NCBI RefSeq assembly: GCF_036588685.1
Contig: NC_086373.1
Location: forward strand, 30,814,001 to 30,878,000
DNA: 64,000 bases
Direction of reading: 5' to 3'
DNA from: Mytilus trossulus
Taxonomy: Eukaryota
Part shown: positions 2,454 through 45,284 of the stretch, one piece after another
Numbering within the stretch: the first letter of the stretch is position 1
How the letters are laid out: each line of letters begins with the position of its first letter
Program-made: the position numbers and the translations under genes
The notes under the pieces: model-generated
What the model saw: the letters and a program-made list of their open reading frames with translations, nothing else
What the model was told of the DNA's origin: nothing
The model's database searches: none

Positions 2454-2925
2454 ATAAACTCATCAAATGTACCAGGATTGAAATTTTGTATTTCGCCTAC
2501 AAAAGACTCATTGAGAGACGCTCGAATAAAAAATAAAGATAAAAGGTTCATATAAAGTACGAATTTGATGTGCATTAAGATCGGAAATCCCTAAAAGTTT
2601 TGACGAATAAAGCTATCGTAATCTATCCAGAGCACCTGAGATCATCCCTAGTTTTTGGTGGGGTTTGTGTTGCTTATTCTTTAGTTTTCTATGTTGTGTC
2701 ATATGTACTATTGTTTGTCTGTTTGTCATTTTCATTTTTAGCCATGACGTTGTCAGTTTATTTTCGATTTATGAGTTTGACTGTCCCTCTGGTTTCTTTA
2801 GTCTCTCTTCTATTCCTGAGGTAGAAAAGCCATAGTATTTAAAAAAAATACAAGTTTTGTAAACAGTTAATTTATAATTATGACCAATCAATGATAATTG
2901 ATGTGAGAACAGAAGTGCTGACTGA
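2454..2925 (-). mobile_element. Degenerate retrozyme-type repeat interrupted by a Penelope-like 3' repeat (2622-2810, + strand)
   Basis: Matches the copies at 25670-25852 and 41478-41622, but the hammerhead is partly deleted. The insert matches 18650-18835 and is flanked by a CTAT duplication. Confidence 0.7.
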
Positions 2926-3733: not shown

Positions 3734-6700
3734 TTAAACATCCGTCTTGGGACGTTTTTCTAGATATTCCTTTATCTTTGGCAAAGCTGCAACTCTTTTT
3801 CTATGTTCAACAAGCTTTGGAAATCCATCCAATATTTTTGAGTCTCTAAGAACAACATTTGTTAGAACTTCATAAACAGCAAGATCTGCCATGGTCATCT
3901 GAAACATAAAAAAATCATCTTTTGTACAGGAAAAAGAAATTAAATGATAAAAAGAAACATAGCAATGTAGCATGTTTTAATAATATTAACGGATATTTTT
4001 GTACACAATATTCATATCCATGTCTTATACAAAACTCAACAATAAACATCAATCTTTTGTTCTAATATTAAGAAAATTCTTACATCTTCAAACGTAACAA
4101 TAAATAAATTTCGAATACGAGAGAACAGATATATATTCATCTTACAATAAAAAAGATATCGCTGGATGTCTACTCCTTTCTCTTGCATTTCTCATTGAAT
4201 TTTATAAAGTTTACCTTATTAGTATTTCCGCTTGACCAGAACTGCTATTTGTTTACTGATTTACGGTGAGTACTATGATTCCCCGTCTGTCTCTGTTTTT
4301 TTTAACTTATAAATGGTTCTTTCTACATTATAACATAATACTTTCAGGTTACTTACCGACGAACCTACAAAGAAACCATTTCCACCATCATTTTGTTCGA
4401 GCCATTTGTTAAAACAGGCCAATGTTTTAGGTGTAGATTCCTTTAAATATTTCTCTATTGCATCCTATAAAAGCATGAAGTGAAAATTTCAAAAAAGAAT
4501 CAAAGTTTGAATACTAAACGAATTAGTAACTATAATTATATGAACAATCATTTGACCATTATTAAATATGTCGATATAACATCAAAACCATTACATCTTT
4601 TGTTTGTATGTCCCTCAACTCGGCGACTGTAGGAATCAGAACTGTAATAGCTACCCAGATGTTGGGTTAGGTCTTAAAAGATATCAGTGAAGAAGCACGA
4701 GGATTCACTGAAATGAAGGGATTGTTAGTACTCAAAAACATAGAATCATGCATTATGACAAAATTACATTTACACGGTAAAAGGTATACTACAATCTATT
4801 ATGGAATGTCTCATCCTACCATGATCGTATTCTCGTAAACATATTTCTAACAGCCAAAAATATGCATGTATCATAAGACAAGGGAGATTTCCTAAATCTT
4901 TCATCAGCAAGGTTTTATTCACCAATTCAACATATGACAAAGGATCCCAATCAATTATCATAGGTCTAGCAACAGCCATGATCATTCATATAAACTTCGT
5001 ACCACACAACAAACGAGAGGTGCATAATACATTGTATTATAAAACAATATGATTTTCCAGTTTGGGGAATACGTGTACCTTCTTTGTTTCCTCTGGAGCA
5101 AAATAACACTTAAAGTATTCCCCTAAGTAATCACTCGTTGTATCTACCACCTGGTCAACCAAGGCTTGCTCCATGTTACTTTTGCCTGCATATCCTGCGT
5201 TAGAAATATAAGTTTCAACACAAATCCTTTTTTTTTATCGTTATAGTGAGTCAAGGTCATCATATAATGCCCTTTAAGCAATTCATGGTTGTAATCATAT
5301 AGAGAAAAAAGAAATTAAAAAAAAGCGTTTTATTAATTCAAATGAAAGATTTGACCAGTTGGTTCGTTGCAAGATTATGCAAGTGCACAATAACTTTTCG
5401 TTCCAGATAATAATGTTTTCCCGAATCTTCATAGTGAAAGCACAGCTTTAGCTGCAAAAGGACTTCCTGTGTTAAATTGCATTGTCTATATTTAAAGAAG
5501 TGCAACATGAAACTATATAAATAAAAAATGAATGCTGTTTGACGATAATAATTATTTTGTGGAAAAAAGTTCCACCAAGACAAGGACATACAGATACCAG
5601 AATAATGAAAAATAAAACTCGTACGAAGTTAACTCTATGAAATCAAGTTTGATCTTTGATGTGTAACTATTCTTTTGTCTACTTAGTAATTGATACGTGC
5701 ATTGCACTAAGTAAATATCTTGTAATCTGATAGTATAGACGTAGATAAAAATTATATCACTAAGAAAATATACAGTAGATAAATATGAAAAGAAATTATA
5801 TCCCCATGAAAATATACAGTAGATATGATATGATATGAAATTATATCACTAAGAAAATATACATTACATTGAATCCTTTGAAAGCAACCTTTGTAAAGCT
5901 TGTGTAGAGATTTTTGCACAATCTATCGATATTTCTCTCAAGAAGTTATTCGAGATGAAGCAATAATGCAATTATGATACTTTATTTTACTGATGTTATT
6001 AAACTCAAACTATGCTAAATAAACCAGCTTAAGTAGTCTGACATCACTTATAATTATACTGATTTATAATTAAAAAAGAACTAAAAACATTTGGCCACAT
6101 ACCATATTCTCTAGCTAAATATCTGGCAATGGTTAAACTCTGACATAACAGTTGACCATCAACATCTAAAGTTGGCATCTGTCCAGTTGGTATTGCTGTA
6201 ATAGACAAAATACCAATATGTACCGTATGCACCTGTAGTGACACCCATCATTTCATTTTTGGAAAACAAAAGCTCTGGTAAAGTAGTAATATATTATGTT
6301 AATTGGAAGTAATATAATATTTTTTCAAGTGTATTGGTGCTTCTTCTTCACAAGAAAAAATGGAATAAAAAAAAATACATACAATGAACAAATACTATGA
6401 AAATAGTTAAGCCCATTAAGGAAAAGTAGAATAAAGGTCTTTAGAGAATATATTCCTACAATGTCATAAACAAATTCTCAGAATCATACTAATGGTAAAT
6501 GTGAGTATCAGTGATTTTTCACCTTTTCAATTGACGCAGTAATTAAATAAAATAAGACATAACAGTCAATCTGTTGACAATTAGGATCATTGTAGATGCA
6601 AGAACAAACCAAAGAGATACATTAACGAATAAAGATCTACTAGTAATAGTTAAGGCAAAGTCGTATAACATAAAGTTTTATTGTGATAACGTCTATTTTA

Positions 6701-9639
6701 CGAAAATGGAAGGAATCACAGTAATTTAAATTATATCTAATTTTATCAGTATTCACGTGTTAATGATGATGCAAATAATTAATGAACAATTTGGATAAAT
6801 CTTCATGTATTGATTAACAACACTATTAAACCAATTGTGAACTTAACCAGGAATTTTCACCGAATAGCGCTTTAAAGGCGGAACATAAATTATTCAGTTG
6901 TGTTTAGTCTTTGTGTTGATTTTCAGACACTTAGTTCTGATACTGATAAGTCAATAAGTGAATTAACAGAAATATTGAACTCGACAGAAAATTCAAAATG
7001 GAAAGTCTCTAATCAAACAGCAAAATCAAAAGCTCAAACACATCCATCGAATGGATAACAACTGTCATATTCTTGACTTTTAAAATTTGATAAATCTGTA
7101 TTCAGATTTTTAAGTAACCTGTTAGTCACCTGTACACAAAACCAATACACTGAGAGGTCTGCAAAAAGTAATGAATAGTTCTGTACAAACTGCAATCAAC
7201 TCCCTGAACAACACTAAATTTAAAACAATATTTATCTGACCGATAACTTTAATTCAAATATGATGTGCTTCTTTCGCTTTGTAAACAACACCGTGATATT
7301 CTCCATATATCTATACTTAGCGCAGAGACATACATAATAGTTGCTGTCACTATATACTTTCCACGTAAATCCACATGTATTGGAACCTATTTTCAAACCA
7401 TTTTCCGATATTATTGTTTTAAAAATTGCAGTTAAAAAAGACAAAATAACTTTTATTCTTATTCGGATGCATAATAAAAAGTCGTAATGCATAAGAACTC
7501 GGAGAAATCAACAAAATAAAAATCAAATCAAATTTCGCGAAAGTCTTTTAATGTTTTTGACGCATTTAAGTCATTTCAAAACATTTCATACAAATGAAAA
7601 CGCTACAGTTGAACGTTTCTGATACGTGAACCATCGAAATTCGTATAATATTGTATAAAAATCGATTTGTAAGGTAGGTTTTGTTTTGTTTTCTATTCTA
7701 TTGCATTTTTCGCATATTTACTGATTTCAGCAAGTCACCATGGCGGCTCCTTATAGTTACGAAATGTCAACTTTGGATTTGACGGTAGCTCACAAGAAAA
7801 ACATGTGAATTAAAAATGGCAAATGATGGGTTAGAGAATTTAAAGAATTAAACAGATTTTTTTCTAGCAGTCATTCACAGAACAATCCATAAAAAGCTAC
7901 AGATTTTATGAATGTTTGAGCTTTTTTTAACCGGGAGTAAGACACTTACAGCCACACACACAGTATGCCTACCATCGCTTCAGTTTTTAAATGACCGTAT
8001 GTGTCCTATTAGAATCGAAATAATTCATAGAAGCCATAGATTGTTGGAAATTTACACTTGGCCTGTGCCGTGATATTCGTTAGTTTTATCCCTCGCTAAC
8101 GCTCATGATAAAATTCGAATACCATGGCCCAGGTTATGTGTAAATTTCCAACAATCTATGGCTTCCATAAATTATTTCTTAAACAAAACATACATTAATT
8201 AAGACTTTTCAGATCATGTTCATATTAAATTGATTGTTTCTATTACTAGTACAAAACTTATACTTGTAACACATAAGTTTAAGTATTCCAATATTGTTTT
8301 GTCATTAAGCATGACAATACGACACAATATATATCTCAAGCAAAGAAAGGTTTGCAAGGTGTGCGGGATTTTTCTCGCTGCGTTAAAGAGCTATTTGTGT
8401 TCTTCGGCTGTTGTTCTCTCTCACGCGGGTTGTTGTGTTTGACATATTCACCATTTTTATTTCCAATTTTAACATTTAAATTTTAAAAAAAGACGAAGGA
8501 AAAAAAAGAATACACAGAACGTTTTACTGAAAACATACAATTTGATTATTGAATAATTCTTATTTTTCCTACTACCACGAATGACGTTTTTGTGTAAGCT
8601 CGATAGAAGACATGATTATAAAAGATATGGACGTGTTTTAACTAGAAATGGAAAGACACACCACCAGTGCAACTGGACAAGTTTTAAATTATGGCTAGAC
8701 ATAGATATATGTGGATAATTCTATAGCTGGCCATAAACAATAGATGAATGCACAACAATAGGTGATTTTATATATGATTTTTAAATAGATAAGATAAAAT
8801 GTTTAAATACACTATAGTGACCTTGGTTTGTTATTTTATTATACACAAGATGTTGGTTACTTTTATATGTGTAGGTCCAACAATGTCTTAAGGTTCATCT
8901 TAATATGTGTTGATAACCGCAACATGCAGTGTGTCCACAGAAAAAAAGTAGTATTTTAAGGCATTTTAGCACTTATATAAAAACGAAATTAACGAATTGT
9001 GTGTTTCAGAAAAACTTTTTACTTTAGTTTCAGTAATTTAATCATTGTAAAATAAACAAACCTTTAAAGTCATTTTTACACTGTTCCCTCAGATACACTG
9101 TTCATATTAAATATCTATTGTTGAATGTATTCATTGTCCATGTAATTCGATACAATATTTATATAACACAATTGTAACATGTGGGGGAATCTAAAAGATT
9201 TTCCTCATTTATAAATCCCTCCTGTAACAAAAATAGCAAATATTCCAGAAATTGTGTGTCTTTCTTATCACACAATAAATTTATCTTTTATATAGGTGCT
9301 GTCATGCCCTAATATTTTCGAAGTTGCAACAGTTTATCTGTATTCCAAGTAAACCTTGTTTACAATTTTGCCATACAGTTACGATGAACCTAAAAAAAAT
9401 GGAAGTGAATATCTTTCATGAAATTTTATTGCATTAAATATAAGAGTTCATATCATACCTTATGATGTATTTAGTACATGTTGATATTAGAATAAACTGC
9501 ACTTACTTGATTTTTTCTTTGGCCATTCTTCAAAAGAAATCCTTATATCTTCATAGTCCTTCCCTGCTACAGCTAACAGTAATCGACTTAGTTCAGCTCT
9601 TCCTCGAACAGGGAAATAGTACAATTTGTAAGTCGGCAT
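3734..9639 (-). CDS. Glutathione S-transferase, sigma class (HPGDS/S-crystallin family), 204 aa; exons 9639-9507, 6195-6103, 5194-5079, 4464-4357, 3898-3734
   Basis: Five exons (133+93+116+108+165 = 615 nt) join in frame across GT-AG introns of phase 1,1,0,0. Protein: MPTYKLYYFPVRGRAELSR...EEWPKKKSTIPTGQMPTLDVDGQLLCQSLTIARYLAREYGYAGKSNMEQALVDQVVD...GFFVGSSMTMADLAVY...KRPKTDV*. It has Y8, R14, W39, cis-Pro52, Q63-S64 and the T-x-A-D N-capping box. Confidence 0.93.
5743..5862. repeat. Short minisatellite, ~3 copies of AAATTATATCACTAAGAAAATATACAGTAGAT, in GST intron 2
   Basis: Three imperfect ~45-bp-period copies seen directly. Confidence 0.75.
8017..8178. mobile_element. Palindromic foldback MITE in GST intron 1
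   Basis: GAAATAATTCATAGAAGCCATAGATTGTTGGAAATTTACAC... is inverse-complementary to ...GTGTAAATTTCCAACAATCTATGGCTTCCATAAATTATTTC. Confidence 0.75.
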
Positions 9640-9676
9640 TTTGTTGATAGAATTTAATACACCTGTGACTGTGAAC

Positions 9677-9682
9677 TTTATA
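9677..9682 (-). promoter_or_regulatory. Candidate TATA box (TATAAA) of the GST gene
   Basis: TATAAA on the - strand about 40 bp upstream of the ATG at 9639. Support is positional only. Confidence 0.35.
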
Positions 9683-10436
9683 TTTGGTATTGTTACGTAT
9701 CAATGGAGAAGACAATACCCTTCTCTGATTACAGTTTTTATAAATAGAATACCATTGTACAGGGGACCAGACCTAATCTTTTAAATGACAGATTGTACAA
9801 ATTTTAATAAAAAAAAAAAAACACGTAACATTCCTATATATCCTGTAACTGTTTCAGTCCTGTTAATTTTTTTTATAGGAATTCATAAAACTTTAAACAT
9901 TTGTCTTTTTTTCTTTTCTAGCCATGACGTTTTCAGTTTATTTTCGATCTATGGGTTTGAATGTCCATCTGATATCTTTCTTCCCTCTTTTTTTAACATA
10001 ATTGATAATTTTTGATATAGTATCAAATATTATGGAAGACTACCTGAGTAAATTGTCAATTTCTAATTTTGATTTAAAAAGGAAGTGAGTATGAAAATTG
10101 TCACAGTCATACTTATTACAGTGTACCAGGCATGTGTTGTGATGGTATTTCTGACGAAGACCAGTTGTTATAAAAGGAATTTCTTCGTCAATTGTTGTGA
10201 CGAAGGATTTTTATATATACTTCACATGGAGGTCACTTGTTACCATGTTGTAACTATGGTTGTCTTTGGTGGTTTTTAAATTGATTACATGGTGTTGTTT
10301 TGCCTCCTTTCGTTTGCTCGAGTTCTTCTACGGTTTTTGTAGGTAGAAGGATGTTTGGACATCTGGGGACTACATGTCGTTGTTGTGGACTGGCTTGGCA
10401 GCGAGTGGGACTCGCGCCTTCTTACCCTTTTTAATG

Positions 10437-14606: not shown

Positions 14607-14886
14607 ACTCATCATAGATACCAGATAGGAATTTTGTAATTACGTCAGACGGGCTTTTTGTCTACAGAAAACTCATAAGTGACGCTTGAATAAGAAAACG
14701 TGTTCTAGATAAATTTCGAATTTGAAGAGCATTAAGAACCAAAAATTCCGAAATAGTTGCCAAATTCAGCTTAGGTAAGCTATTCATGACGTGGAAAAGC
14801 ATTAGTATTTCAAAAACTCAAAATTATATAATCAGTTATTTTATAATTATAACCATAAAAATGATAATTCAGGTCAACGCAGAAGT
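14607..14886 (-). mobile_element. Degenerate retrozyme-type repeat (hammerhead core decayed)
   Basis: ACTCATCATAGATACCAG...TACGTCAGACGGGCTTTTTGTCTACAGAAAACTCATAAGTGACGCT matches the better-preserved copies at 25670 and 41478. Confidence 0.7.
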
Positions 14887-15249
14887 GAAAAAATAAGTTT
14901 GAAAGGAAAAGACTTATCTGATCCCTGAAATGAGCACAAAAATACTACACCTTTGAACTTCCAATATGTAATTACTGACAAATATTTATTCAACAGGAAG
15001 AAAATGGGACATTTTTGAAAATATACCTTTCCATTAAAATACTAGATAATGCTACTAATACATGTATCTGACCCTTTTTTTTCTTTCTTTTTTTTTGAAC
15101 GAAGGAGGATCCTACTTCGTCAAGAAACTTATGTACCACTGATTCTTAAAATGAAATGTGAATTACATTTCAAAATATATCTCCAATGGCCTTTAAACTA
15201 ATAAAAAGACTATCAAGCAGAAATTATTGAAAAGTCAAATAATAATTAT

Positions 15250-15860: not shown

Positions 15861-15904
15861 TATGTATAATTTTTTTCTAACTTTTTTTCAGTCAAATCCC
15901 TAAT

Positions 15905-18900
15905 ATGCTTGGGAATATCTGCCTGTGCCTTATCAGCATTGTAATACATTATACAACAGCAACTATTCAATCATTATACTGTCCACCTACATATAATAAA
16001 TGTCTGTATGACAGAAGTAGCAATTCAAGACCAAAGGACGTACCAGGAGAGGAAATTGTCAGTTATTGCATTAATAAGTTTTTATGGGAAAATCCTCCAT
16101 TTGACTATAAGGAAGATGATGAAGTATTGAATTTTGTGAGACAAATGTTTGTTAAATCCCAGTTTGATAAGAAAAAGAAAAAACTGTTTGTTCGGAAAGA
16201 ATATAGAATGCTGACAAAGAAGGAAAGAGAAAAATACCATGCAGCTATCAATAGACTAAAGAATGATAAGGTAAAGAATTGTTTTATAAAAATATTGACG
16301 CGTACAGTTCAGTTGAAAATAACCATGTAAAATCTACCTGACAGGTAGAAACCAGTTAAGATCATGCCTTCATAATTTTGACCGTTATGGAATGACCGTT
16401 CCAAAGGAGGATATAGGACATGTTCCTTATGTCGTAACTTTTAACAAATGTGACCTACCGAATTAGACTTTTTGACGGGGTTTTAATAACATGAGCAACA
16501 CGACAGGTGCCACACGTGAAACATAGATTTTCGTATCCCAGGCAAAGATAACCTTAGCCGTATTTGGCACAACGTTTTGGAATTTTGGATCCTCAATGCT
16601 CTTCAACTTTGTTCTTGTTTGGCTTTATAAATATTTTGAAATTAGCGTCACTGATGAGTCTTATGTAGACGAAACGTGCGTCTGGCGTACTAAATTATAA
16701 TCCTGGTACCTTTGATAACTATCTGCTAACCCTTCCGGAGCACCCAAAATCAACCCCAGTTTTTGAAGGGGTTCGTTTTGCTAAGTCCTTAGTTTTTTAT
16801 GTTGTGTCTCGTGTACTATTATTTGTCTGTTCGTCATTTCTTTTATAGCCATGACGTTGTAAATTTATTTTCGATGTATGAGTTTGACTGTTCCTTTAGT
16901 ATCTTTTATCCCTCTTTTAGGACGATAAGGCACAATTTACAAAACGTACAGTTCTTTGAGAATAATAAGATAAAATACAAGATTGATATTTGCCTGACAC
17001 GTTCTGACAATGGGGACCAATGTTTTAACTAAAACATTGAAATGACACTGACACGTACAGATCGTTTTAATCAATTAAAGTTAAAATATTGTAGAAATAT
17101 TGTATAATGCTTGTTTGTTGTTTTAATTTAAATAACACACTTTCGTTGTCAGTTTGTTTTAGATTTATGAGTTTGACTGTCCCTTTGGTAGCTTTCGTCC
17201 CCCTTTTACAACTTTTTTAATAAACGTTTGTTATCATGTCAGCTTGTATTCTTTATCAAAAAGTCCTTGCTCTTACAGTGGCGGATCCAGGGGGTTGGGG
17301 TTCCGGGGGTAACCCCCCTTTTTTGGACGATCAATGCATTTGAATGGGGACATATAGATGGAACTGCCCCTTTTTTTCTGGGTTGGGAACCCCCCTTTTT
17401 AAATGGCTGGATCCGCCCCTGCAGACTTACACTTGCACTCTTTAACTGTTTCAAAACATATACTGTAAACCAACTTTCGCGAGTAGAAAAATAACGCGAT
17501 ATTAAATCGTCGCGAAAAACAATAACTTGGATCATTTCCTATGAAACTACATTAAGTAAATAAGTACATCGCGAAATTTAGTCGTCGCGAAGTTGGCTAG
17601 CTGGGAATAAACGCGAAATAAAGTATCCGCGAAAATAAGTTGGTTTACAGTATTTGAGTATTTGAGAATTGTGTGTTGATGGTAATTTTGTTTACCTCTG
17701 TTTAAACTATTTAAACTAATTCGTGACTCGAGACGATTGACACATCGCCACAAAATGGTCAGTTTATTTTCAACTTTGGGTTTGAATGTTCCTTTAGTAA
17801 TTTTTTGCCTCCCTTTGAAGAGCACCTTTCTTTCTACTGTCTTTTAATTTTTTTGTGTGTCGCTTAGTTGCTGTCTCATTGGTGTTTAACCCAGATCTTT
17901 TTTTATTCATAATACTTATAATTGCAGCTAACTATATTTCTTCTCTCTATTGCTTGTGTTTATATTGCAATCATAGAGGTGGGACACATGATTGCAGATC
18001 CGATCAGAGTAGCACATTTTGTTATGATAGACTCCAAAAGAGTATGTCCATTCTAAAAAAGATAAATTTTCGAAGGGAAACGAACAATTGAAAACTTTAA
18101 TCTGTTAGTTTTCAAATTGACTGATTGATTGATTCTGACCGCAACTGTTATCAAACTGGAGATAAAGGATACTACAGATACAGTTAAGTCGGCTTCATAT
18201 CTTGACTTACATCTCAAAATTGACAATGAGGGTCGGTTGAAAACAAAACTTTACCACAAAAGAGATGATTTCAGCTTTCCAATTTTGAACTTTCCATTTC
18301 TAAGTAGCAACGTTCCAGCAGCACCTGCATACGGGGTATATATCTCCCATATGATACGATATTCCCGTGCTTGCATTTACTATCATGATTTTCTTGATAG
18401 AGGGTTACTGCTCACAAGGAAGCTATTAAACCAAGAGTTCCAAATGGTGCAGTTGAAATCATCCCTTCGTAAATTTTACGGACGCCATCACGAGTTGGTT
18501 GACCGTTATGAAATAACCGTTTCACAAATGATATCGGATATGTTCCTTACGTCGTAACTACAATCCCCTTCCCTTTCATGCATGTGACCTACCGAATTCA
18601 TTAATCACATAAGCAACACGATGGATGTGGAGCAGGATCTGCTTACCCTTCCGGAGCACCTGAGATCACCCCTAGTTTTTGGTGGGGTTCGTGTTGTTTA
18701 TTCCGTAGTTTTCTATGTTGTGTCATGTGAACAATTGTTTTTCTGTTTATCTTTTTCATGCTTAGCCATGGCGTTGCCAGTTTGTTTTAGATTTATGAGT
18801 TTGACTGTCCCTTGTGTATCTTTCGTCCCTCTTCTATCAATGTTGGCTATTTTATGATGGGCAATATGCATTGGTTGAGGAATCCAGGGTGCTCGTAGAG

Positions 18901-21900
18901 ACTAAAAATTCTAGGCAATTAAGATTGGAGTCGATCACACCGGCCATGTAGTGCGGTGGCTCGACAACTAAGACCATGAGGGCTATGCTAGTTTTTAGAA
19001 TCTGTAACGAAAACAAGTGAACATATATTAAATAGTGAGTTTGCCTTAGTAAATTTCTTTATGTGAATAGGAATTTTTTCACTATTCAACGCTTATACCT
19101 AGTGTTAATATTATAGTTATCAAAGGCACCAGGCTTATAAGTTGATACGCCAGACGTGCGTTATCTAGAATAACAAAAACACATCTAGTATGATGGTGTA
19201 TAAAAGAATTAAAGTCATATGAAACCTCAAATCTAAAAAAATAATGCATATGTTTTTTTATAAAAAAGTAAATGGATAGTTTACATTATAAAACTTATGC
19301 ACTCATTTTTAGCTCACCTGGCCCGAAGGGCCAAGTGAGCTTTTCCCATCACTTTGCGTCCGTCGTCCGTCGTCCGTCGTCTGTCGTCGTCCGTCGTCGT
19401 CCGTCGTCGTCCGTCGTCGTTAACTTTTACAAAAATCTTCTCCTCTGAAACCACTGGGCCAAATCAAACCAAACTTGGCCACAATCATCATTGGGGTATC
19501 TAGTTTAAAAAATGTGTGGCGTGACCCGGTCATCTAACCAAGATGACCGCCACGGCTAAAAATAGAACATAGGGGTAAAATGCAGTTTTTGGCTTATAAC
19601 TCAAAAACCAAAGCATTTAGAGGAAATCTGACATGGGGTAAAAATGTTTATCAGGTCAAGATCTATCTGCCCTGAAATTTTCAGATGAATCGGTTAACCT
19701 GTTGTTGGGTTGCTGCCCCTGAATTGGTAATTTTGAGGAAATTTTGCTGTTTTTGGTTATTATCTTGAATATTATTATAGATAGAGATAAACTGTAAACA
19801 GTAATAATGTTCAGCAAAGTTAGATTTACAAATAAGTCAACATGACCGAAATGGTCAGTTGACCCCTTTAGGAGTTATTGCCCTTTATAGTCAATTTTTA
19901 ACCATTTTTCATAAATCTAAGTAATCTTTTACAAAAATCTTCTCCTCTGAAACTACTGAGCCAAATTAATCCAAACTTGACCACAATCATCTTTGGGGTA
20001 TCTTGTTTAAAAATTGTGTGGCGTGACCCGGTCAACCAACAAAGATGGCTGCCATGGCTAAAAATAGAACATAGGGGTAAAATGCAGTTTTTGGCTTATA
20101 ACTCAAAAACCAAAGCATTTTGAGGAAATTTGACATGGGATAAAAATGTTTATCAGGTCAATATCTATCTGCCCTGAAATTTTCAGATGAATTGGACAAT
20201 CGGTTGTTGGCTTGCTGCCCTCCAATTGGTAATTTTTAAAGAAATTTTGCCGTTTTTGTTTATTATCTTGAATACTATTATAGATAGAGATAAACTGTAA
20301 ACAGCAATAATGTTCAGCAAAGTAAGATCTACAAATTAAGGAGTTATTGCCCTTTATAGTCAATTTTTAACAATTTTCATTAATTCGGTAAATTTATGTA
20401 AATTTTTACCAAATATTTTTCTCTGTTACTAATGGGCAAGGTTCATTATAGATATAATTGTAAGAAGCAAGAACGTTCAGAAAAGTAAGAACTTCCAACA
20501 CGTCACCATCACCAAAATACAATTTTGTCATGAATCCATTTGTGTCCTTTAATATGCACATAGACCAAGGTGAGCGACACAGGCTCTTTAGAGCCTCTAG
20601 TTTAAAGAAAAAGTCTTTAAATTGTCCACATTTAGAAGAAGTTTACCTTTTTTTAATTGCTTGCTTCCAGGAAGCATTTCGCCGACCCTTCTCGTAAAAA
20701 TCTGGTGATCGCAATACGCATGGATCTGTCATTAAAATAAACTATTTACTGATTGTACATGTTAAACACGTGCTTATTATCCATGCTCTTTTGTTGATTG
20801 TTTACTTTATTGAGGTGACAATCGTTGAACTACGGCTTCAAAATACAACAGTTAAGTAGCTGCCATATTTTCACCTCATAACATACAGAGATAAAAAAAA
20901 TATTTGACGATTATACGATATGTTTGCGTAAAAAAATGATAAAATCATGCACTGAAGACTGAGTTTATAATATATACATGCATTGTTTCAAAAATTGGAT
21001 AGACATTATTTTTCACCAGTCACTCGTTTCATATGACTTTAATTTATTAAACTAAAATCTAGTGTAATTCCCGATATATATCTTATAGATTTATTGGGAT
21101 ATGATTGGTTAAAGGAGGTTAATACATATATTTGGTATAGGGTGTTAAAAAAACACGGGGTTATTTACCATAAAGGTTTAGTTACCATACGGGCTAAGTG
21201 AGTAGTTCTTTCCCTTTAAAAAAAATTCCAAAAAATCTGAAAGGTTTCAACCTGAGGCGAAGAAACTGATGATGAACGATTAAAATACATTTATGAAACA
21301 TATTTAAAGTTAGAAGGGTGTTACTGTTGGAATTGTATGCTAACAGTAACCACTGCTACTGGGTTTTATTTTGTATGAAGACTTAATCACTTTGATAGGC
21401 CGTTAGTCTAAATGCAACATGGGAAAATAGTATGTAAGATAAATTCATTACACGGTTTGATAGTGACCTAATACGATTTAAAAAGGGTATGTAAATTCCA
21501 TATGGGGATTTGCGCTTCGCCCTTATCCCAGTTGGAATTTTACAAATCCTATATATATCCTATTAGGTCACTTACACACCATGTAACTAATAATATTTAT
21601 TTCACTAAACCAAAAAAAAAACCTCATAATTATCAAGGTTATACTGGTCACAGTATAGAAAAACAAGTTTAAAATGTGAAAAATAAATCTGACTAAAAAT
21701 ATATTAATTAATATTGTTTGTGTTAACAAAATGTTTTTATCTTTTAGAGCCTGAAACCAAATGTGTATGATTGTCTTGCAAATTTCCACAGGAGTTCCTC
21801 TGTCAAAAACGCCCATTTTGGATCGGCATTTCTTCCGTGGCATCGTCTCTTATTAACCATGTAAGTATTGGACATTAGTATGACGACCATTTTCACTGAA

Positions 21901-24900
21901 CTAGTTCACAAATTTATGTTAAGGAGTCAGTTGAGACCCATTTCCAAATGCGAGATTTTCTCGCTGTGTTGAAGACCAATTAATGACCTTGGACTGTTTT
22001 CTGCTCTTTGATCGGGTTGTTGTCTCTTTGACACACTCCTAATTTTATTATCTAGTAGGAACAAAGCGGGTATGCAGTAGAATGTTAAGCAAACAACAGT
22101 CAGTCAATGCAATAGTCGATATGAAAAGAGGAGGGTTGAGATATATAAAAAAATCTAGAATAACTCCACTATATAACAAGTTAGGAACTTTTTTTTCCAA
22201 TTTAACCAATTTGGCTTAATTTTTTGTTATTTAATGTTGATTTTTTGGTTGGACAAATGGCATTTTTAGAGCTCGACATGTTTGGTTTTGTATTAATAAT
22301 CAAATACCGATTTTGATATCACACACGTGTACAAAACTCATCTGGTTTTGAGTTAATGTCCCTGTCAAACTAACAATTACAAGGCCAGAAACTCCATGAC
22401 ATTTGTGAAATATCCAAATCAAAAGATCATCTTGGTTAGTGTCGAAAAAGTCCTGGAAAAACATCATTTCGACTCGGTAATTTATTTTTTGTTTGCGAAA
22501 GGAGCTCCCATGTGCATTTGAGAATATCATATTCAAGCACGTGCAGTTCAGTGCTACGATAATTTCAATCAGCACTAGGCAAGGCATGTGCAGTAAGATT
22601 TGGTGTGTGATATTATAAAAAAAGTGGTATATTAAATTGGTGTTGCAAAGAATGACTATCAACTTACCTCCTATAAAGCTCAAGGCATATCATTGGTTAA
22701 AATAATACGTGGAAACACTTAATATTGTTATTACATTAAAACTGTCAGTAGGCATGTTAAAAGAAACTTGTTATATTTCAAATACATAGTCAGTGGGCGC
22801 GATATCTTTTGAATTCACAAATAGATGTAGCTGGTACTAGAAGTACGCTCCTTTAAAAAAAAATTATTGTTCTCAAATGAATATACATTGTAAACATACA
22901 TAATTATAATCTTTCAAGGTTTTTAGACAGACACATGTGTTACACTAGTTTTCTAATTTGCAATAATAAAAGGTTCTGAGTAATGTTGTGTTAAAATTGT
23001 GATACCAAGGGTCTTTGAAATTAAAATTGTTATTATTTCCATTTTTTGTATACAGCAGTGCAAATGAATGCTCTTAATATGAAAAACTAAATCACTTATT
23101 ATATATAGTTCACCAGACACTAACTTTTGATGCTTTTTAAGAGGAAACATATTTTAAAGTAAATCTGAAACACATTGGTTATACAAACAGCATGAATTAA
23201 AAAAAAACGGTTTTTAGTTGTCGATACGTCGAAAAGTCTAGCCAGCTCAGATAACATTTTTTTTCTTACCAGAAAAAAAGTTTTGTTGTTTAAATCCTGC
23301 CAAAAATTGTTAAAACATTTATTGGTTATTATTCTTGAAAATCACTAACTTTTATCGAATTTGACGGTTTGGAATTTTCAAAATCTTTAAACAAGTTGGT
23401 TAACAAAGCACATGAAAAAAGTAAAATTTTGGGTCCAAATTCATTTACCCCTTCCAAACCTTCTACAGACTAGCTTTGCATTCTTTTTATGTTCAATAGT
23501 CAAAGGAGTACTGTCCCAATAATAATTGTAATACATTTAATTAAGAAAAACAATAATATTCAGTATGGGGCGAATTCACATAACTTTTTGTCACAACTAT
23601 ATATTGGTTTCTCTCCCGAGACTACATAATGCACCTGTCATCAATAGCAGACGCTAACAGAATTCATTGTTTTGACAGTCTGTCACTATCTAAGTACTGT
23701 CTTTGTATTAATGTAGATTATCTATTAGCATAAGCTTGTACCAGGATTGATGTTCAGGTCATATCTTCTAGAATAGTGCCTTTTATATTTGAAAAAAACA
23801 AACAGAAACAGTAAGAAAGTACATAAACAAACTCTGTATCAATGACTTACCACTAAAACCATATTACTTCATTATTTAATCATTTATTCAAATCGAATTT
23901 CCCAAAACTTCCAAGATTTTTTTCTTAATGATGCCACAAGACACAATGGAAAGTAAAGTTGCTCCAGAACTCCTCCGACTAAGTTTATTGGTGTTTTTGC
24001 ATTTCGTGTATGAATGGTAGTTTTCTACCTTTTCATCCACGTCATTAAAAAAATATGTACTATAGTTTAATGCTTGGTGGTGTCAAACAAAGAAACAAAC
24101 ACACACAAAATTTAATACTAATCAAAGCGCCCACAAGCAGCAGAACAATCAACATTAATTACATACTAATGATTACAAGTGATTTAATATGTTAAAATAT
24201 TTATTAAGAATATTACAAAAATGCACAGTTTACTGGATCTGTTTGCATCATTTTTACAGCCAAATGTAAACAACATAAATACTTGATCCCTGTTAAATTT
24301 ACTGATATGTTAAAACACACTAATGACTTTTAAGATATGTGTAAGAGTTGTCTCCAATATACCAGGTCTACCCTCTTCAATATACCATCTAGTTGAATAT
24401 AAAGGATACCACTATATTAATGTTTCATTATTAAACGTTATTTTGATCGGCTAACGGCAATCATGAGTCATTCTGAAATAAACCCTCATTTGAAAATGAA
24501 ATGTAACATTAATGATTACACGAGCATCCACAATGAAGTGTACAAGTAAAAATTAATAGAAAACGTGATTTATAACCAATCAAAAAAATGTAATTATAAT
24601 TACTGAATGGTTATTAGTGATTAAATACGCAAGTAAAAAGTAAAATAAGGAAAATGCGAAAATCCGAGGACATTTATATACGGAAGGTTCCTAAGCATAT
24701 TGAAAAATCAAAAGCTCAAACATATCAATGAACGAATAACAGCTGATTTTGTACAGGCATTTTCTTATGTAGAAATGTTAGATTAAATCTTGTGTTATAG
24801 GTAGCTAAACTTTTCAGACTGTCGCATAAAGTTTCATTATATTAGCAATGAAGTGTAATCAAAACAAACAGACATGATTGTAATATCTTCCCATTTATAA

Positions 24901-27358
24901 ATTAATTAGGCTTGTTTAATTTTCTTAAAATTTTGAGAAAGTATTTACTTTGAACTTTTGACAAAAATATAAAAATTTCAAAAAATTGAACCAACCGTTT
25001 AATCAGAAAAATTACACTGGTTATATAGCAGTTTGACAAAAACTTATTTTGATCATTGAGAAGCTTAATATTCCCTTAACAGCACGACGTCATTAAAACA
25101 TTCTGTTGATTTTACAGAGTTATCTCCCTGTAGTGTTAGGTACCACCTTAAGTTTAATAACTACAAAAACAAACAAGAAATGTTGGTGATCTTCAGATGT
25201 TGTCTGTTCTATGGTCGGGCTGTTGTCTCTTTGACACATTCCCCATTTCCAATCTCAATTTCAAATATGTCAACATAGATTAAGAAAAAGGTATATTGAC
25301 AAAGCATATTAGCAATAAGCCCCGCCTACTAACACAATATGGAACCCCACTTACCCATCTGGAATATTCACGGTCTCCATGCGGTTGCCTTTAACCAATC
25401 ATATTCCTAAAATTGTAAAAGAGGTTAGATAGAAACAAATACTATGGCACAATAATGCAATGAAGGGGTTGTATAAGTATCGATCCATATCAAAAGGACT
25501 AAACAATAAAAGAAATAATTTACAAAGACAAATACAAAAAATACTATAACACGATAGTAAGATAGTAAACAACGTTTGTACCTAGAATCGATTCTTCAAG
25601 AAGTAAAAGCGTTGACCAAGCTCACAATATTAGAATGAAGCACATCCGCGCTTCATACAAAGTGTACAAATAAACTCATCATAGATACCAGGAATAAAAT
25701 TTAATATTAAAGCCAGACGCGCGTTTCGTCTACAAAAGACTCAACAGTGACGCTCGAATCAAAAATGTTATAGAAGGTCAAACAAAGTACGAAGTTGAAG
25801 AGCATTGAGGACCAAAAATTCCTAAATGTTTTGCCAAGTACAGCTAAGGTAATTTACAAAAGAAGTATTCAATTCTTAAGTTAAAACGAAGTAAACTATA
25901 CCACTTATTGTAATATAAGTATAGTGATTAATATTTTTCAGAGTTGAAACTGCTTTGGATTGTGCAATTCCATACTGGGATCCAACTCTTGACAACAGAT
26001 TAAAAAATCCATCAGATTCATGTTTGTTTACGAAAAAATTTGTAGGAAGTCCAAATGGAAAAATTGGCTATCCATTTAACAACTGGAAGCATGAGGGAGG
26101 AGGATATGTAATACGCAATGTCGGGGGTTTTGGAGGTGAGTTACTAACAAAGAAAAATGTAAACGATGTTTTGTCCAAAAAACGTCACTCTGAGATAACA
26201 AACAGTAAAAGTAGACGTTATTTCCTGGAGGAACTGCACGGTAAATGTCATTCTTTTGTCGGCGGTAATATGGCAAAACTGATAACTGCACCACATGATC
26301 CTTTGTTTTGGAGCTTGCATGCATTTGTTGATTGCTGGTGGGAAAAATTTAGACAAAAACAACAGAAAAATGGAATCAATCCAGAAAAAGATTATCCTTA
26401 TACTAGAAAGATAGGACACCGACCTTACGATTTGATGGATGGTTTTGGAAAATTGACAAATCAAGGGTTTGGCATATCAGAAAAATTTACCGTATCCGAT
26501 AAAACACACACATTTAAGAGGTTTCGAAATATAGATGGATTTTCTAACCGTTTCACTAAGGACATATACACATGTCAGCCGTTTCCGTCTTGTAGTAAAA
26601 GTAAACCAAGCTGTGGGTCTCCCTGGCTTGATTGTAACAAATTAACATGGGAGTGTGTTCCAAAAACAAATAAAGCCGATCTCGATAGATTAGATGCAAC
26701 TCCAAGTTTTCTAAACACCGTGCAAAATCCATTCGAAATTAATGGAAATGCAGATTCTAATCAATGGGTTTATATAAATTGCTTAATAGTGTTTAAACGC
26801 CCACGAAATGTCACGTTTAATTCGTTTCCAATTCACAAGGGTATAACATCAAAAAAGAATGATATTTATGCTGATAGGAGCAAGAACTTAAAAAAATCTT
26901 TTCCTAAGGCATACGAAAAACACATAAACATTGGTTCGGGATTCGAAAAGGTGAATATTCGTGTGGAAGGGACAAATTACGATGGCAGGTCAGTAGAGTA
27001 TGCTATTGTAGACGATAGGTTTGGGATAAGTGAAGCAATGACCTATTTACCTGTACGGAAACCAATGAACCATAAAGCGACACAGGTATTGTTAACAGCA
27101 TTCGACACAGGTGGCAGGTTATGTCGACCCTATTGCAGAGACAGAAAAGATCCAAAAAAATTTGTTCCGTGTACAGGCTGCTTAAAGATAGATACCAATG
27201 AACCTCGGATCTACAGTAATTCTTATGCTGAAAGTGTATCGAAAAGATGGAATTTGCATGATAGCAATGATATAAGCTGTCCTAGGTCGAGCAATGACGG
27301 AGTGTATATCAAGTTCTTCTGTAATTTTCTAGACTTATGGCCATGGGAAAAAGTATGA
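15905..27358 (+). CDS. Tyrosinase/catechol oxidase-like type-3 copper protein A (secreted), 631 aa; exons 15905-16270, 21748-21860, 25942-27358
   Basis: 366+113+1417 = 1896 nt in frame across GT-AG introns of phase 0 and 2. Signal-like N-terminus MLGNICLCLISIVIHYTTA, RKEYRML motif, CuA histidines (NFH, AHFG, FLPWHR), IPYWD, CuB histidines (ELHGKCH, DPLFWSLH). An acceptor TTTTTTTCAG just before the ATG implies a 5'UTR exon. Confidence 0.93.
16380..16918 (+). mobile_element. Penelope-like 3' repeat interrupted by a retrozyme-type insertion (16530-16722)
   Basis: The flanks match 18500-18835 (GACCGTTATG...TGTTCCTTA...GTGACCTACCGAATT...ACCCTTCCGGAGCACC). The host motif GGATCTGCTTACCC is split by the insert. 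Confidence 0.8.
16645..16688 (+). ncRNA. Type I minimal hammerhead ribozyme with intact core (retrozyme/Penelope type)
   Basis: Stem I GCGUCA/UGGCGU, core CUGAUGA (16651-57), stem II GUCU-uaugu-AGAC, GAAA (16671-74), near-palindromic stem III ACGUGCGU, cleavage triplet GUC ending at 16682. Confidence 0.85.
17276..17421. mobile_element. GC-rich MITE with TIR CAG(T/G)GGCGGATCCAG
   Basis: CAGTGGCGGATCCAG...CTGGATCCGCCCCTG. TSD unclear. Confidence 0.75.
17463..17650. mobile_element. TA-flanked MITE (Tc1/mariner type)
   Basis: TA|CTGTAAACCAACT...AGTTGGTTTACAG|TA with internal CGCGAAA repeats. Confidence 0.8.
18152..18835 (+). mobile_element. 5'-truncated Penelope-like retroelement: RT C-terminal part plus 3' region (short tails also at 2622-2810, 9895-9990, 17143-17207)
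   Basis: ORF LEIKDTTD...SASYLDLHL...KTKLYHKRDDFSFPILNFPFLSSN...YGVYISHMIRYSRAC, stop at 18557. The downstream sequence is repeated several times in the window. Confidence 0.8.
19213..21038. mobile_element. Non-autonomous Kolobok-type DNA transposon (TTAA TSD) carrying a nested Helentron/HINE
   Basis: TTAA|AGTCATATGAAAC...GTTTCATATGACT|TTAA. TTAA TSD with purine-purine ends fits Kolobok rather than piggyBac. Confidence 0.75.
19309..20602 (+). mobile_element. Helentron-associated non-autonomous element (HINE/DINE-1 type) with ~502-bp internal tandem repeat
   Basis: 5' GCTCACCTGG...CCAAGTGAGC inverted repeat, (GTCC/GTC)n microsatellite at 19356-19420, two long units starting at 19424 and 19926, 3' sub-TIR AGGTGAGC and hairpin AGGCTCTTTAGAGCCT, inserted in a T-run. 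Confidence 0.85.
24905..25147. mobile_element. Terminal fragment of a TTAA-flanked DNA transposon
   Basis: Ends ...GTGTTAGGTACCACC|TTAA. The motif TTACAGAGTTATCTCCC recurs at ~57537. No second end found. Confidence 0.5.
25670..25852 (-). mobile_element. Retrozyme-type repeat; hammerhead (25711-25754) with core mutation CUGUUGA
   Basis: Reverse complement reads GCGTCA CTGTTGA GTCT TTTGT AGAC GAAA CGCGCG TC TGGC. Confidence 0.8.
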
Positions 27359-29039: not shown

Positions 29040-29303
29040 ATCATATATCTTCTGTATAGTCATTTTATAAAAGTTACTGTTTGCAAAAGTATTATTAATA
29101 CTCTAAATAATAGGGATGTTCTGGTACCTAACAGAAAACCCTGGCCGTTTTTGGCACAGTTTTTTTGAACTTTTGGTCCTCGATGCTGTTCACTTTTGTA
29201 CTTGTTTCGGCTTTCAAACTTTTGTATCTGGGCGTCACTAATATGTGTGGACAAAATGCACTTCTGACGCATCAAAATTTTAAACTTGTTGCCTTTTGTT
29301 AGC
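29040..29303 (+). mobile_element. Degenerate retrozyme-type repeat
   Basis: GGCCGTTTTTGGCACA...TTTTGGTCCTCGATGCT...GGGCGTCACTAATATGTGTGGACAAAATGCACTTCTGACGC aligns with 16530-16722. The core is partly deleted. Confidence 0.6.
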
Positions 29304-29922
29304 TATTAATCGTGTGTTTCTGTGTCAATTGTGTTCTCCTATTTATTTATATTGTAGTCCTGTAATGTTGTGTTGTCATTTTAATGTTATATTTCACATG
29401 GCCATAAAAGAAGGAGGTTTGGCATGCCACAAAACCAGGTTCAACCCACCATTTTTTCCTTTAAAAATGTCCTGTACCAAGTCGGGAATATGGCCATTGT
29501 TATATTATAGTTCGTTTATGTGTATGTTACATTTTAACGTTCTGTTTCCGTTGTGTCGTTTGTTTTCTCTTATTTTTGAGTGTGAATTCACACTTACTAT
29601 AAGACGTGTCACGGTACTTTCATGTATTTGGTTTTGATGTTATATTTGTTATTCTCATTGGATTTTGTCTAATGCTTAGTTCGTTTCTTTGTGTGTTACA
29701 TTTTAATGTTGTGTTGTTGTTCTCCTCTTAAATTTAATGCGTTTCCCTCAGTTTTAGTTTGTTACCCCGTGTATACTACTGTTGCTTTTATTTAACTCAT
29801 CAGATGGACAAAATACAATTGGACTTGACCGGGTACTTGTACATCCCAGCAACAAAAAGACACTAAGTACAGATCTGAGAGTACTCGCATTTAACTGACA
29901 GCTAGTTCAAATCCACTATTAA

Positions 29923-38533: not shown

Positions 38534-41500
38534 ATGGTAGAGAAAATGAAGGTAAGTTTGACATAAATTAACATTGATATTGTCATAATTATTAATTAAC
38601 ATTTTACAAAACTTCGATTTTTTTAAATACTTAGGCATCTTCTAAACCAGGAATAGATCACCTTAGCTCTATTTGTCAAAACATTTGTTCCTCAATACTC
38701 TTCGACTACGAACTTTATGAGTCATTTCTTGGCGAAACGCGCGTCTGGCGCAAATACAAAATTTCAATCCTGGTATCTATGATCATATAAAAAAGAAGAT
38801 GTGGTATGATTGCCAATGAGACAACTGTCCACAAGAGACAAAAATGACACATACATTAACAACTACATGTCACCGTATGGCCTTCAACAATAAGCAAATC
38901 CCATACCGCAAAGTCAGCTATAAAAGGCCCCGATAAGACAATGTAAAAAAAATTCAAACGAGAAAACTAACGGCCTTATTTATATAAAAAAAAATGAACG
39001 AAAAACAAATATGTAACACATACACAAACGACAACCACTGAATTACAGGCTCCTGACTTGGGACAGGCTTATACATAAATAATGTGGCGGGGTTAAACAT
39101 GTTAGCGGGATCCCAATCCTCTCCCTTACCTGGGACAGTGGTATAACAGTACAACATAAAAACGAACTATAAAAATCAGTTGAAAAAGACTTAACTCGTC
39201 AGATGGACAAACATACAAGTGGACGTGGCCGGGTACTTATACATCCCGACACAAAAAGACACAATGAACATATCTGAGAGTACTCGCAGTTATCTGACAG
39301 CTAGTTCAAAGCCACTAACAACTTATAAAAAAATCATGCATCTAAGACTAAACTATCAATCTGTACACATCCAAAATCCAACGGGTTTAGTGTAAAGACG
39401 TCATAAACAGCCTTTTTTTTTTTTATTGACAACATTTTTTAAGTTTTCATCTTGCACAAAGACGGTAAAACTAGATTGAGCATGTATTCCTTTTCAAGCA
39501 AGTGTAAAAAAAACATAAAGGAAGATATACTTTAAAAATGAACAATGATTAAAGAGGACATTGGTTTACAAGAAAGAGGAAACGAAAGTAGAAAATTGAA
39601 ACCTATCATAAATTGTCAACTTGCAGAAAAAAACATCTTTTCTTGAAATCACCATGACAGATTCTGAGTGGGGAAGACAGCGTCCCCCTTTGATCGGAAA
39701 ATACATCATTTGGGGCATATCGTTAAAACAATTAGATTAACTATTTAGGAAAATAACTCCCTTTTCTAGAACATTGTCAAAACATTTGTTTGACTGAAAC
39801 GAAAGGAAAAAATGAACATATATTGTATGAACGCTATTTTTTTTTTTACTGAAGATAATATTTTTACCTCTATATGTCTGTTCATTTCGAATGGCAGTAT
39901 AAATTGATAGCATGTTTACATGAGGAAGACAAAAACAAATTTAAGAAGAAAAAAGCATATGAATTGACGCTAATAAATACGATAAGTTTGTTCGTTCCTT
40001 TGTTTTTGTTTGGTTTTTTTTCTTTTAAATGCCACTTTCAGTTACCTTACTTATATCATAATGGCTAGTTTTATTGATGAAGGTAGTCAGGATACCAAGA
40101 GAGAATCAAGGACTTAGATATAGGAAGATGTGGTGTGAGTGCCAATGAGACAACTCTCCATCCAAATAACAATTTAAAAATTAAACCATTATAGGTTTAA
40201 GTACGGCCTTCAACACGGAGCCTTGGCTCACACCGAACAACAAGCTATAAAGGGCCCCAAAATTACTAGTGTAAAACCATTCAAACGGGAAAACCAACGG
40301 TCTAATCTATATAAACAAAACGAGAAACGAGAAACACGTATATATTACATAAACAAACGACAACTACTGTACATCAGATTCCTGACTTAGGACAGGTGCA
40401 AACATTTGCAGCGGGATTAAACGTTTTAATGGGCCCAAACCTTCTCCCTTTTTCTGAAACAATAGCATAACATCACAACATAGAAAAACATACGATAAAA
40501 TATCAATTGGCAGACTTAACTCAATCAAAAACGTACTTGTCAATTAAGATCGGGATCGAACGAACCTGATCACCAACAGAGTCGTTACTCGCAACATCAG
40601 AGGTGACAAACTATTGTAGATGAACTGGTTAAATGAAATAGCCATGAGGATCGGGGGGGGGGGGGGAGTGTTATTCTGTAAACATTTAATTTTCACCCCT
40701 TTTTTCTCTAATCATAAAAAAAGGACCCCTTTTTTTTTCTCTAATCTTCAAAAATTAGACCACGCATTTCTCTAATTTTCATTTTTTTTGCCCGTTATTC
40801 TCTAATCTCAATTTTTTAAGGGCATTATTCTCTAATTAGTTAACCCCATCCAAACCCTCAGCCATTGAGACCCCACGATATCTAACGATAATTTCATAAG
40901 TATAATCATGATATTGCGTTGTAGTTAATGTTGATATTGTTGCTGATGGTGTTAGTACTTGGTTGTTGTTGTCGAAGTTGTTATATTCTATATTTCTTAA
41001 ATTTTATATTCATAGATATTGTTAGTACTAACTAACCAGCTGATCTTATTAATTGCCATCCTTTCAAAATATGGTGGCGAGGCAAACATCTACCAAATGC
41101 CACTTCCGGCCCACTTGATCTCTTGTTTAAAGAATCGAACTTATGGTATCAGCCCAACGGAATATCCAGGTGAAGATGTTACAACGTTTTGTGTCCAGGA
41201 GCATCTATGGGTCGATTCAAAGAAAATATTCCCATATGAAGTGGCAGAGGATACATCACGTTGGGTTTTAAGGTTGTTTGAAAAAGGTCGGAGGGAGAAA
41301 GAGCAAATTTTGAGGATAAGAAAGGAATATAGAATGTTAACAAAAAGCGAGCGAAACGATTATCATAGGGCTGTACAATTATTGAAAAAAGACCAGGTAT
41401 GTTCTGTGAAACAATCAAATGTAAATACAAATATATAAAAGCATCCTAAAATATATATTCATAAGAACTAAGAACAGACTCATCATAGATACCAGGACTA

Positions 41501-44500: not shown

Positions 44501-45284
44501 AACTTGTAGCCCGGAATATCCAGACTGTGGATCATTTTGGTTATTCTGTGATCAGACAAAATGGGTCTGCATCTCGAAAAGCTACAAAGAACATCTCAAC
44601 CATTTAGATTCTACCCCTGTAGTTCTTAATACAGTTCAAAACAGATTTGAGATAAACGGACGGGCGGACATGGACGCTTGGGTGTATTTAACTGTTAAAG
44701 TATATGTAACGCGACCACCAACAGTTAACTTCAAATCATATGCGATACGAGATGGTAAAGCGTCAAGCACTGATGTGTTCTCTGCATCTCATTATCAAAT
44801 AATGAGCGACAAAATACATCCGGGGAATCCAAAATCTTATTCAAGACGTAGATTTAATGGCTCTGGGATGGAGAAGATATTTATTCAAACAGACGGCTTA
44901 AACTACGACGGAACGTCACTAGAATACGCCATAATAGATGAAAGATTTGCTATGGCTGAGGGAATAACATATGTTCCAGTGAAAAACCCCGGCTATGGCG
45001 TAACAAAGGTTCTTCTTACAGCATTTGATTCCGGTGGAAGATTGTGTAGACCGTTCTGTAAGCGTTCCGATACAGGTGAGTTCGAGCCATGCTCGGGTGC
45101 TGTTGCCATTGATTCATCCAGTCCTCTGATGTTTGGGGAAACATATGCTGATAACATTCTTAGTCGATATGAGTTTAAACAGGAATTCCCTTACTCACAA
45201 GATCGAGGTATATTCATTATATACTATTGCGACTTTCAAGAGGTTTGGCCATGGGATATGTCTTGGAGTAAAGATAGTTGCTGA
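38534..45284 (+). CDS. Tyrosinase/catechol oxidase-like type-3 copper protein B (secreted), ~628-632 aa; exons 38534(or 38546)-38551 (inferred), 41016-41396, 42673-42785, 43898-45284
   Basis: The 381+113+1387-nt exons join in frame (phases 0 and 2). CuA (NFH, AHFG, FPGWHR), LPYWD, CuB (HHGKGH, DPLFFSYH). Exon 41016 starts at an acceptor without an ATG, and ATG-GTA-GAG-AAA-ATG-AAG|GTAAGT supplies a phase-0 start (this first exon has ~0.65 confidence). AATAAA overlaps the stop (45284-45289). Confidence 0.9.
38558..38784 (+). mobile_element. Degenerate retrozyme-type repeat (only the 3' half of the hammerhead, GAAACGCGCGTCTGGCG, remains)
   Basis: Aligns with 16530-16722 and with the reverse complement of 25670-25852. 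The CUGAUGA/stem II region is lost. Confidence 0.7.
38788..39410 (-). mobile_element. Penelope-like element 3' region (uninterrupted copy of the family at 28633)
   Basis: High similarity to 28633-29040 + 29790-29920 + 30675-30760. Shorter decayed copies lie at ~35300-35620, 36050-36440 and 57800-57872. Confidence 0.75.
40646..40859. mobile_element. MITE with GAG...CTC ends, 6-bp TSD AGCCAT and internal TTCTCTAAT repeats
   Basis: AGCCAT|GAGGATCGGGGG...CCCCATCCAAACCCTC|AGCCAT. Confidence 0.7.
41478..41622 (-). mobile_element. Retrozyme-type repeat; hammerhead (41516-41560) with core mutation CUGGUGA
   Basis: Reverse complement reads GCGTCA CTGGTGA GTCT TTTGT AGAC GAAA CGCGCG TC TGGCGT. Confidence 0.8.

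Follow-up and report, generated by a model that had tools for sequence, protein, structure and literature searches.

The closest described system is the non-LTR retrozyme of Mytilus galloprovincialis, for which the original report gives about 5,000 hammerheads in 350- to 390-bp repeats, together with abundant circular RNA (PMC7229834). The same text gives a rate of about 0.1/min, measured at 37°C and 6 mM Mg, for the cleavage of a cloned mussel unit that had no designed partner. Here, we analyzed a hammerhead that lies in the sense orientation within an intron of a tyrosinase gene, Tyr-A, of Mytilus trossulus; the window is the whole stretch of 64,000 nucleotides in which it was found. The family represented in the window resembles the M. 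galloprovincialis retrozyme in having a mussel host, and the match rests on the described hammerhead type (type I), unit size (354 bp, within the published 350 to 390), GC content (low, 38%), copy number (thousands), and array organization (tandem). Unlike the described element, the window copy is a solitary fragment of 197 bp that has a single ribozyme and carries private mutations.

Other known systems share some of its properties. The minimal hammerheads of Penelope-like elements (PLEs) have the same type I topology, a palindromic stem III region, and the link to PLEs (PMC7761336). According to that source, they are usually without helix III nucleotides and may cleave as dimers; in the window motif, by contrast, a tetraloop caps a helix III of 2 bp, and the motif is part of a noncoding repeat unit. 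The PLE "tail" of Poseidon of Anolis has a fixed 3' end downstream of the cut, variable 5' truncation, and AT-rich junctions in common with our copies; an internal start was demonstrated in vitro for that autonomous element, whereas here the ends of copies suggest one (PMC11167929, PMC8557442). The HDV-like ribozyme of the mammalian Cpeb3 gene is likewise a sense, intronic, self-cleaving RNA located kilobases before the next exon. However, the Cpeb3 report describes a single-locus, functionally conserved ribozyme with a half-life of 2 to 3 min and an effect on its host (PMC10919898), whereas the window motif is one of thousands of mobile copies, slower and drifting, whose cleavage is predicted.

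A tyrosinase intron contains an intact hammerhead motif

The three coding exons of Tyr-A were delimited with a 631-aa M. galloprovincialis protein. The first (positions 15905 to 16270, plus strand) is 93% identical to residues 1 to 122, the second (21748 to 21860, plus), which encodes three copper-A histidines, is 92% identical to residues 123 to 160, and the last (25942 to 27358, plus), which matches the Pfam Tyrosinase family (PF00264, E = 1.6e-15), is 96% identical to residues 156 to 631. The last exon is also 81% identical to "tyrosinase-like protein 2" of M. californianus. The mapping of the M. galloprovincialis protein across these exons supports a splice from the donor at 16270/16271 to position 21748, which leaves a GT-AG intron of 5,477 nt (16271 to 21747, plus). 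The first coding exon with the start of this intron has one match in the genome and no second copy. The predicted ribozyme cut falls 412 nt past the donor, with 5,065 nt left to the acceptor. A previous interpretation made from the DNA alone (the sequence-only reading) had given the same 412 nt, counted from "exon 1"; the distance is correct, and the exon should be called the first coding exon, since an acceptor-like site precedes the ATG. This site, a pyrimidine tract and AG at 15880 to 15892, 13 nt before the start codon, suggests an upstream untranslated exon. Elsewhere in the window, three tyrosinase-like genes, including Tyr-A, are clustered at 15905 to 27358 (plus), 41025 to 45284 (plus), and 55857 to 52317 (minus), with three coding exons common to all. 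Glutathione S-transferase (GST) exons lie at 3734 to 9699 (minus; Pfam GST_C_3 at 3737 to 3976), and broken LINE-like reverse transcriptase frames (Pfam RVT_1) lie downstream of Tyr-B at 45686 to 47669 (minus).

The motif itself is a type I hammerhead ribozyme with an intact core at 16645 to 16688 (plus), recovered both by a descriptor scan and by Rfam. Stem I (16645 to 16650 with 16683 to 16688) has 6 bp, two of them G-U, the core consists of CUGAUGA at 16651 to 16657 and GAA-A at 16671 to 16674, and stem II has 4 bp (16658 to 16661 with 16667 to 16670). Helix I is open, and the core and helices I to III are all present, as expected of type I. In the monomer, helix III has 2 bp and a 4-nt loop. 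The predicted cut follows C16682, so that stems, core, and cut all lie where the sequence-only reading had located them. The Rfam comparison that it had proposed (Hammerhead_1, RF00163) gave a match over model positions 1 to 45, the full model, with 30.3 bits and E = 2.1e-5, which is under the gathering score of 34; a scan of the whole window at the gathering threshold returned no matches. A typical copy of the mussel retrozyme family scores 33.0 bits, likewise below 34.

The type I descriptor matched the window once, compared with a mean of 0.11 matches in 100 shuffled versions, 11 of which had at least one match. By itself, the short motif thus exceeds chance expectation only modestly. A looser hammerhead pattern had three matches in the window but was discarded, as 17 of 100 shuffles also reached three. 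Thermodynamic folding was likewise rejected as evidence of activity: the fold of lowest energy differs from the hammerhead (z = -0.12), and the active fold carries a penalty of 7 to 14 kcal/mol for the window copy, with similar values in 50 family copies. Because the active fold is disfavored in family copies too and yet the family has been published as cleaving, we consider the folding models uninformative.

The hammerhead belongs to a truncated copy of an abundant mussel retrozyme

Judged by alignment, the decisive proof of hammerhead identity is the similarity of the surrounding sequence to a real retrozyme unit. The motif lies in a 5'-truncated copy at 16526 to 16722 (plus) that spans -156 to +40 relative to the cut, or 197 of 354 nt, and is identical without gaps at 188 of 197 positions (95%) to one unit of a 354-bp tandem array elsewhere in the genome. 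The sequence-only reading was right about the family, a Mytilus non-LTR retrozyme linked to Penelope-like elements. Its treatment of the motif as a minimal hammerhead did not survive, given the 197-bp element in which the ribozyme is embedded and the 2-bp helix III with its 4-nt loop. Animal non-LTR retrozymes have their type I hammerhead in a tandem unit of 150 to 450 bp that has a GC content below 50%, is noncoding, and has no LTR, and the family agrees in all of these (354 bp, 38% GC); no open reading frame of at least 70 aa covers the element in the window. Release of a unit RNA takes two tandem ribozymes, and the window copy has one. The window copy is a derived, immobile fragment of a retrozyme unit.

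The family is abundant. An exact 32-nt core with one free position occurs 12,156 times in the genome (6,185 forward and 5,971 reverse; control, 0), an average of 0.6 per 64 kb, with many cores in arrays. Very long arrays of 354- to 358-bp units extend over tens of kilobases at G000:C1:269295-307905 and 47187864-47345464. The stem III region of the window copy (16674 to 16681, plus) carries a C-to-T change at 16677, which would be in the loop of the monomer fold and form a G-U pair in a dimer; the same T is found in 222 of the 12,156 exact cores. The near-palindrome reported by the sequence-only reading is thus real but is a variant, the family palindrome being perfect.

About eight worn relics of the family were found in the window. 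Three of them are antisense in tyrosinase introns, with broken or missing cores (19113 to 19162, 25678 to 25856, and 41482 to 41623, minus); the others lie at 14611 to 14887, 2462 to 2657, and 2809 to 2923 (minus) and at 29059 to 29307 and 38558 to 38783 (plus). Several relics belong to an older subfamily ending at +34. All have core changes or lack the core, confirming that the motif at 16645 is the only one in the window with a perfect core. Overall, the element is a known mussel non-LTR retrozyme in an ordinary placement. Among the titles and abstract openings listed by literature searches, we found no retrozyme hammerhead regulating a mussel gene.

Copies share a 3' end, and the window copy interrupts an older repeat

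The 40 nt past the cut (16683 to 16722, plus) represent a 3' end common to genomic copies. A sample of 93 loci sharing the stem III variant was drawn from the first 100 listed of the 222 by removing the window copy and six array neighbors; 77 of the 93 ended at +38 to +47. Among 19 loci chosen by similarity, 18 ended at +40 to +45. The 5' ends of the 93 loci were scattered, and 63 copies were shorter than one unit. The form met most often in this sample is a short copy with one ribozyme whose end lies about 40 nt beyond the cut. Within the sample (L082 to L174), the 5' ends of 8 loci group at -180 and those of 7 loci at -138; such groups may represent subfamilies or copies that were duplicated. 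Exact target-site duplications of at least 7 nt were detected at 6 of 122 sampled copies, and none of that length was detected at the window copy.

Both flanks of the window copy belong to one older repeat. Its left half (16410 to 16525, plus) is 67 to 75% identical, and its right half (16723 to 16920, plus) 80 to 83% identical, to all five uninterrupted copies compared. In the uninterrupted repeats, the right flank begins no more than 8 nt from the end of the left flank; in L224, for example, the left flank ends at 1952 and the right flank starts at 1960. On this comparison, the retrozyme copy split an older Penelope-like remnant. The repeat, with 5,801 first-look candidates in the genome, is the 3' end of a Penelope-like element, probably of the Naiad type. 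The Naiad label draws on weak Pfam matches (GIY-YIG, E = 0.03, ahead of the reverse transcriptase region, and RVT_1, E = 0.0024) and on the description in PMC8557442. A second, longer 3' remnant of this Penelope-like element, which includes part of its open frame, is present in the same intron at 18129 to 18840 (plus).

Since the fixed 3' end lies downstream of the cut, it cannot stem from the end of a cleaved linear monomer. A Penelope-like reverse transcriptase may instead start about 40 nt downstream of the cut on uncut, multimeric, or circular retrozyme RNA. Reverse transcription would then cross the ribozyme and, for the window copy, would have halted after 197 nt. An internal start of reverse transcription has been offered as the explanation for PLE tails, and that study reports no reads ending at the cut site of the PLE concerned (PMC11167929).

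The copy shows wear and no sign of selection

The window copy differs from the array unit at 9 of 197 positions, three of which lie within or beside helices of the ribozyme. Two private changes, T to A at 16640 and G to T at 16643, fall in the 5' arm of a predicted distal stem I (16638 to 16644, plus) and would break two of its pairs. This distal helix was seen only when the fold of a family copy was constrained, at 15°C. Energies of the stem I duplex did not separate the window copy as deficient, with 41 of the 93 copies being weaker at 37°C. For stem III, computed dimer energies were -13.3 kcal/mol for family with family, -11.4 for window with family, and -8.8 for window with window. The stem III variant of the window copy is thus predicted to weaken dimer pairing.

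To put the intact core in context, we used dispersed copies identified by their 3' end. From the first 100 of 1,224 such loci, we dropped the window copy, three near neighbors, and 49 rows of one array; of the remaining 47, one gave no alignment and one was without a ribozyme, leaving 45 copies. All 11 invariant bases and a cleavable site were retained by 28 of the 45, so the intact core of the window copy is unremarkable. Core positions differed at a rate of 7.3%, compared to 8.9% in stem II and loop II. We therefore saw no sign of selection to keep or destroy catalysis, in a comparison of low power.

Core-intact sense and antisense copies are about equally frequent near predicted exons

Orientation relative to genes was assessed in 140 stretches of 10 kb in which repeats were masked and exon-like segments were called from splice signals, open frame, and GC content, with approximate splice weights. 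When applied to the window at the working threshold, the caller missed many exons, but all six of its calls were on coding exons and on the right strand (five in tyrosinase genes and one beside a GST exon). Of 139 loci, 120 were core intact, and after the removal of two transposon matches, those near predicted exons were split between 20 sense and 19 antisense copies (95% confidence interval, 35 to 68% sense). Other exon thresholds gave sense-to-antisense ratios of 26:25 and 13:12. At the strictest threshold, the ratio was 3:8 (P = 0.23; 4:12 before filtering), and on account of this split there may be mild purging of sense copies. The test excludes strong bias only, and most loci were near predicted exons, with only two or three per strand flanked by them on both sides. 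Exons with Pfam support were found at 12 non-transposon loci among 108 candidates scanned, and the 10 core-intact loci were divided 5:5.

At one locus (L220, G000:C1:44882420-44892419), a nearly full unit with an intact sense hammerhead lies between two EGF-domain exons. In another gene of the tyrosinase family (L209, G000:C1:36427532-36437531), the intron that precedes the last exon contains a 99-bp sense fragment of the retrozyme, whose core has two changes. Within the window, no other tyrosinase intron holds an intact sense copy. Given 0.6 exact cores per 64 kb and the other sense intronic copies, the placement in the Tyr-A intron is expected by chance. In Xenopus, 42 to 44% of retrozymes are intronic, and the preprint reports significant depletion from introns after size correction (bioRxiv 10.64898/2026.07.22.740005).

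The ribozyme is probably a neutral passenger of the tyrosinase gene

We favor, with a probability of roughly 0.84, the reading that a 5'-truncated copy of an abundant 354-bp mussel retrozyme sits within an older repeat in a tyrosinase intron as a neutral passenger, with a cut too slow to matter. The lone ribozyme could not release unit-length or circular RNA. It may self-cleave in cis in the pre-mRNA at or below the slow rate of its family; even then, the exons, tethered to the machinery of transcription and splicing, would be joined. The copy would decay at the same rate as the surrounding element sequence. Introns cut by a slow hammerhead are reported to be spliced nonetheless, whereas fast ribozymes abort processing (work cited in PMC2995048 and PMC10919898). 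The passenger reading must contend with the precedent of the mouse Cpeb3 ribozyme, which, with its half-life of 2 to 3 min, is reported to modulate its host (PMC10919898), and with the depletion of retrozymes from Xenopus introns. It must also contend with our own model, in which 12 to 40% of transcripts are cut before the acceptor is reached at 0.1/min and elongation rates of 1 to 3.8 kb/min, a share that is not negligible; here the slower elongation rates are assumptions and the cleavage rate comes from 37°C and 6 mM Mg.

That same calculation, over the 5,065 nt to the acceptor, is one argument for supposing that cis cleavage of the copy is quick enough to cut a measurable fraction of nascent Tyr-A transcripts, with a slight loss of output as an unselected side effect. 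The core and proximal stems are intact, and Cpeb3 is a precedent for an intronic ribozyme acting on its host. We nevertheless regard this as unlikely. The rate is probably lower in a cold-water animal, and 0.01/min would reduce the cut share to 1 to 5%; the predicted distal stem I would be less stable with the two private changes; an intron can be spliced even after it is cut; and no deficit of sense copies was seen. The sequence-only reading had suggested that the pre-mRNA could be cut during transcription, possibly only when it pairs in trans with abundant retrozyme RNA; in the strict form of this model, the ribozyme is silent alone and needs stem III pairing with that RNA, and retrozyme levels control tyrosinase. 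The heteroduplex is indeed predicted to be favorable (-11.4 kcal/mol), retrozyme circles are reported to be abundant in mantle and gonad (PMC7229834), the monomer helix III is merely 2 bp, and dimers between transcripts may have been possible in the published T7 assay. However, the reported cleavage of the cloned mussel repeat at about 0.1/min, and the usual lack of helix III nucleotides in the PLE hammerheads from which dimer dependence was drawn, speak against such dependence here, and the authors report monomer cleavage for invertebrate motifs and a need for dimers in amphibian ones (PMC7229834, PMC7761336). For some mussel circles, self-pairing that would block the ribozyme is predicted, and we found no nuclear location of circles in the literature consulted. 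With the pairing weakened by the change at 16677, nothing specific to tyrosinase among thousands of copies, chance placement, and slow intronic hammerheads reported to spare splicing, modulation of Tyr-A in trans is unsupported and highly improbable.

We give even less credence to domestication of the insertion as a conserved Tyr-A regulator, which we consider extremely improbable. In its favor, contigs that join the 3' end of the element to the flank at single-copy depth were found in two runs of two studies (X1 and X5) among four runs examined, which may point to its presence in other individuals; these joints include only 24 letters of the element, and X1 may itself be close to the source sample. 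A search for an insertion-free allele in contigs of runs X1, X2, X5, X6, X8, and X12, in which contigs break at repeats, recovered none. Joints that skip the element were considered as an empty allele and rejected, since their sides were short or they held additional letters; other copies of the host repeat are their most likely source. In run X2, parts of the right flank are not covered at 98%, from which nothing can be concluded. Against domestication, 9 positions have drifted, including the three within or beside helices of the ribozyme, the core is also kept by 28 of 45 unselected copies, and the other tyrosinase introns of the window have no intact sense copy.

Implications for mussel retrozymes

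A broader version of regulation in trans would hold that retrozyme RNA, by pairing with the stem III palindrome, activates the lone sense hammerheads of mussel introns, which probably number in the thousands. We consider this very unlikely; if true, host pre-mRNAs throughout the genome, that of Tyr-A among them, would be trimmed by a circular RNA resembling a viroid. As one of thousands of copies of a described element, the window copy is in itself of little consequence. The 3' end fixed at 40 nt beyond the cut offers a hint about the copying of retrozymes into DNA. The copy may also serve as a test case for the cutting of host pre-mRNA by core-intact intronic hammerheads, for which mussels offer many natural examples, with active variants next to dead ones.
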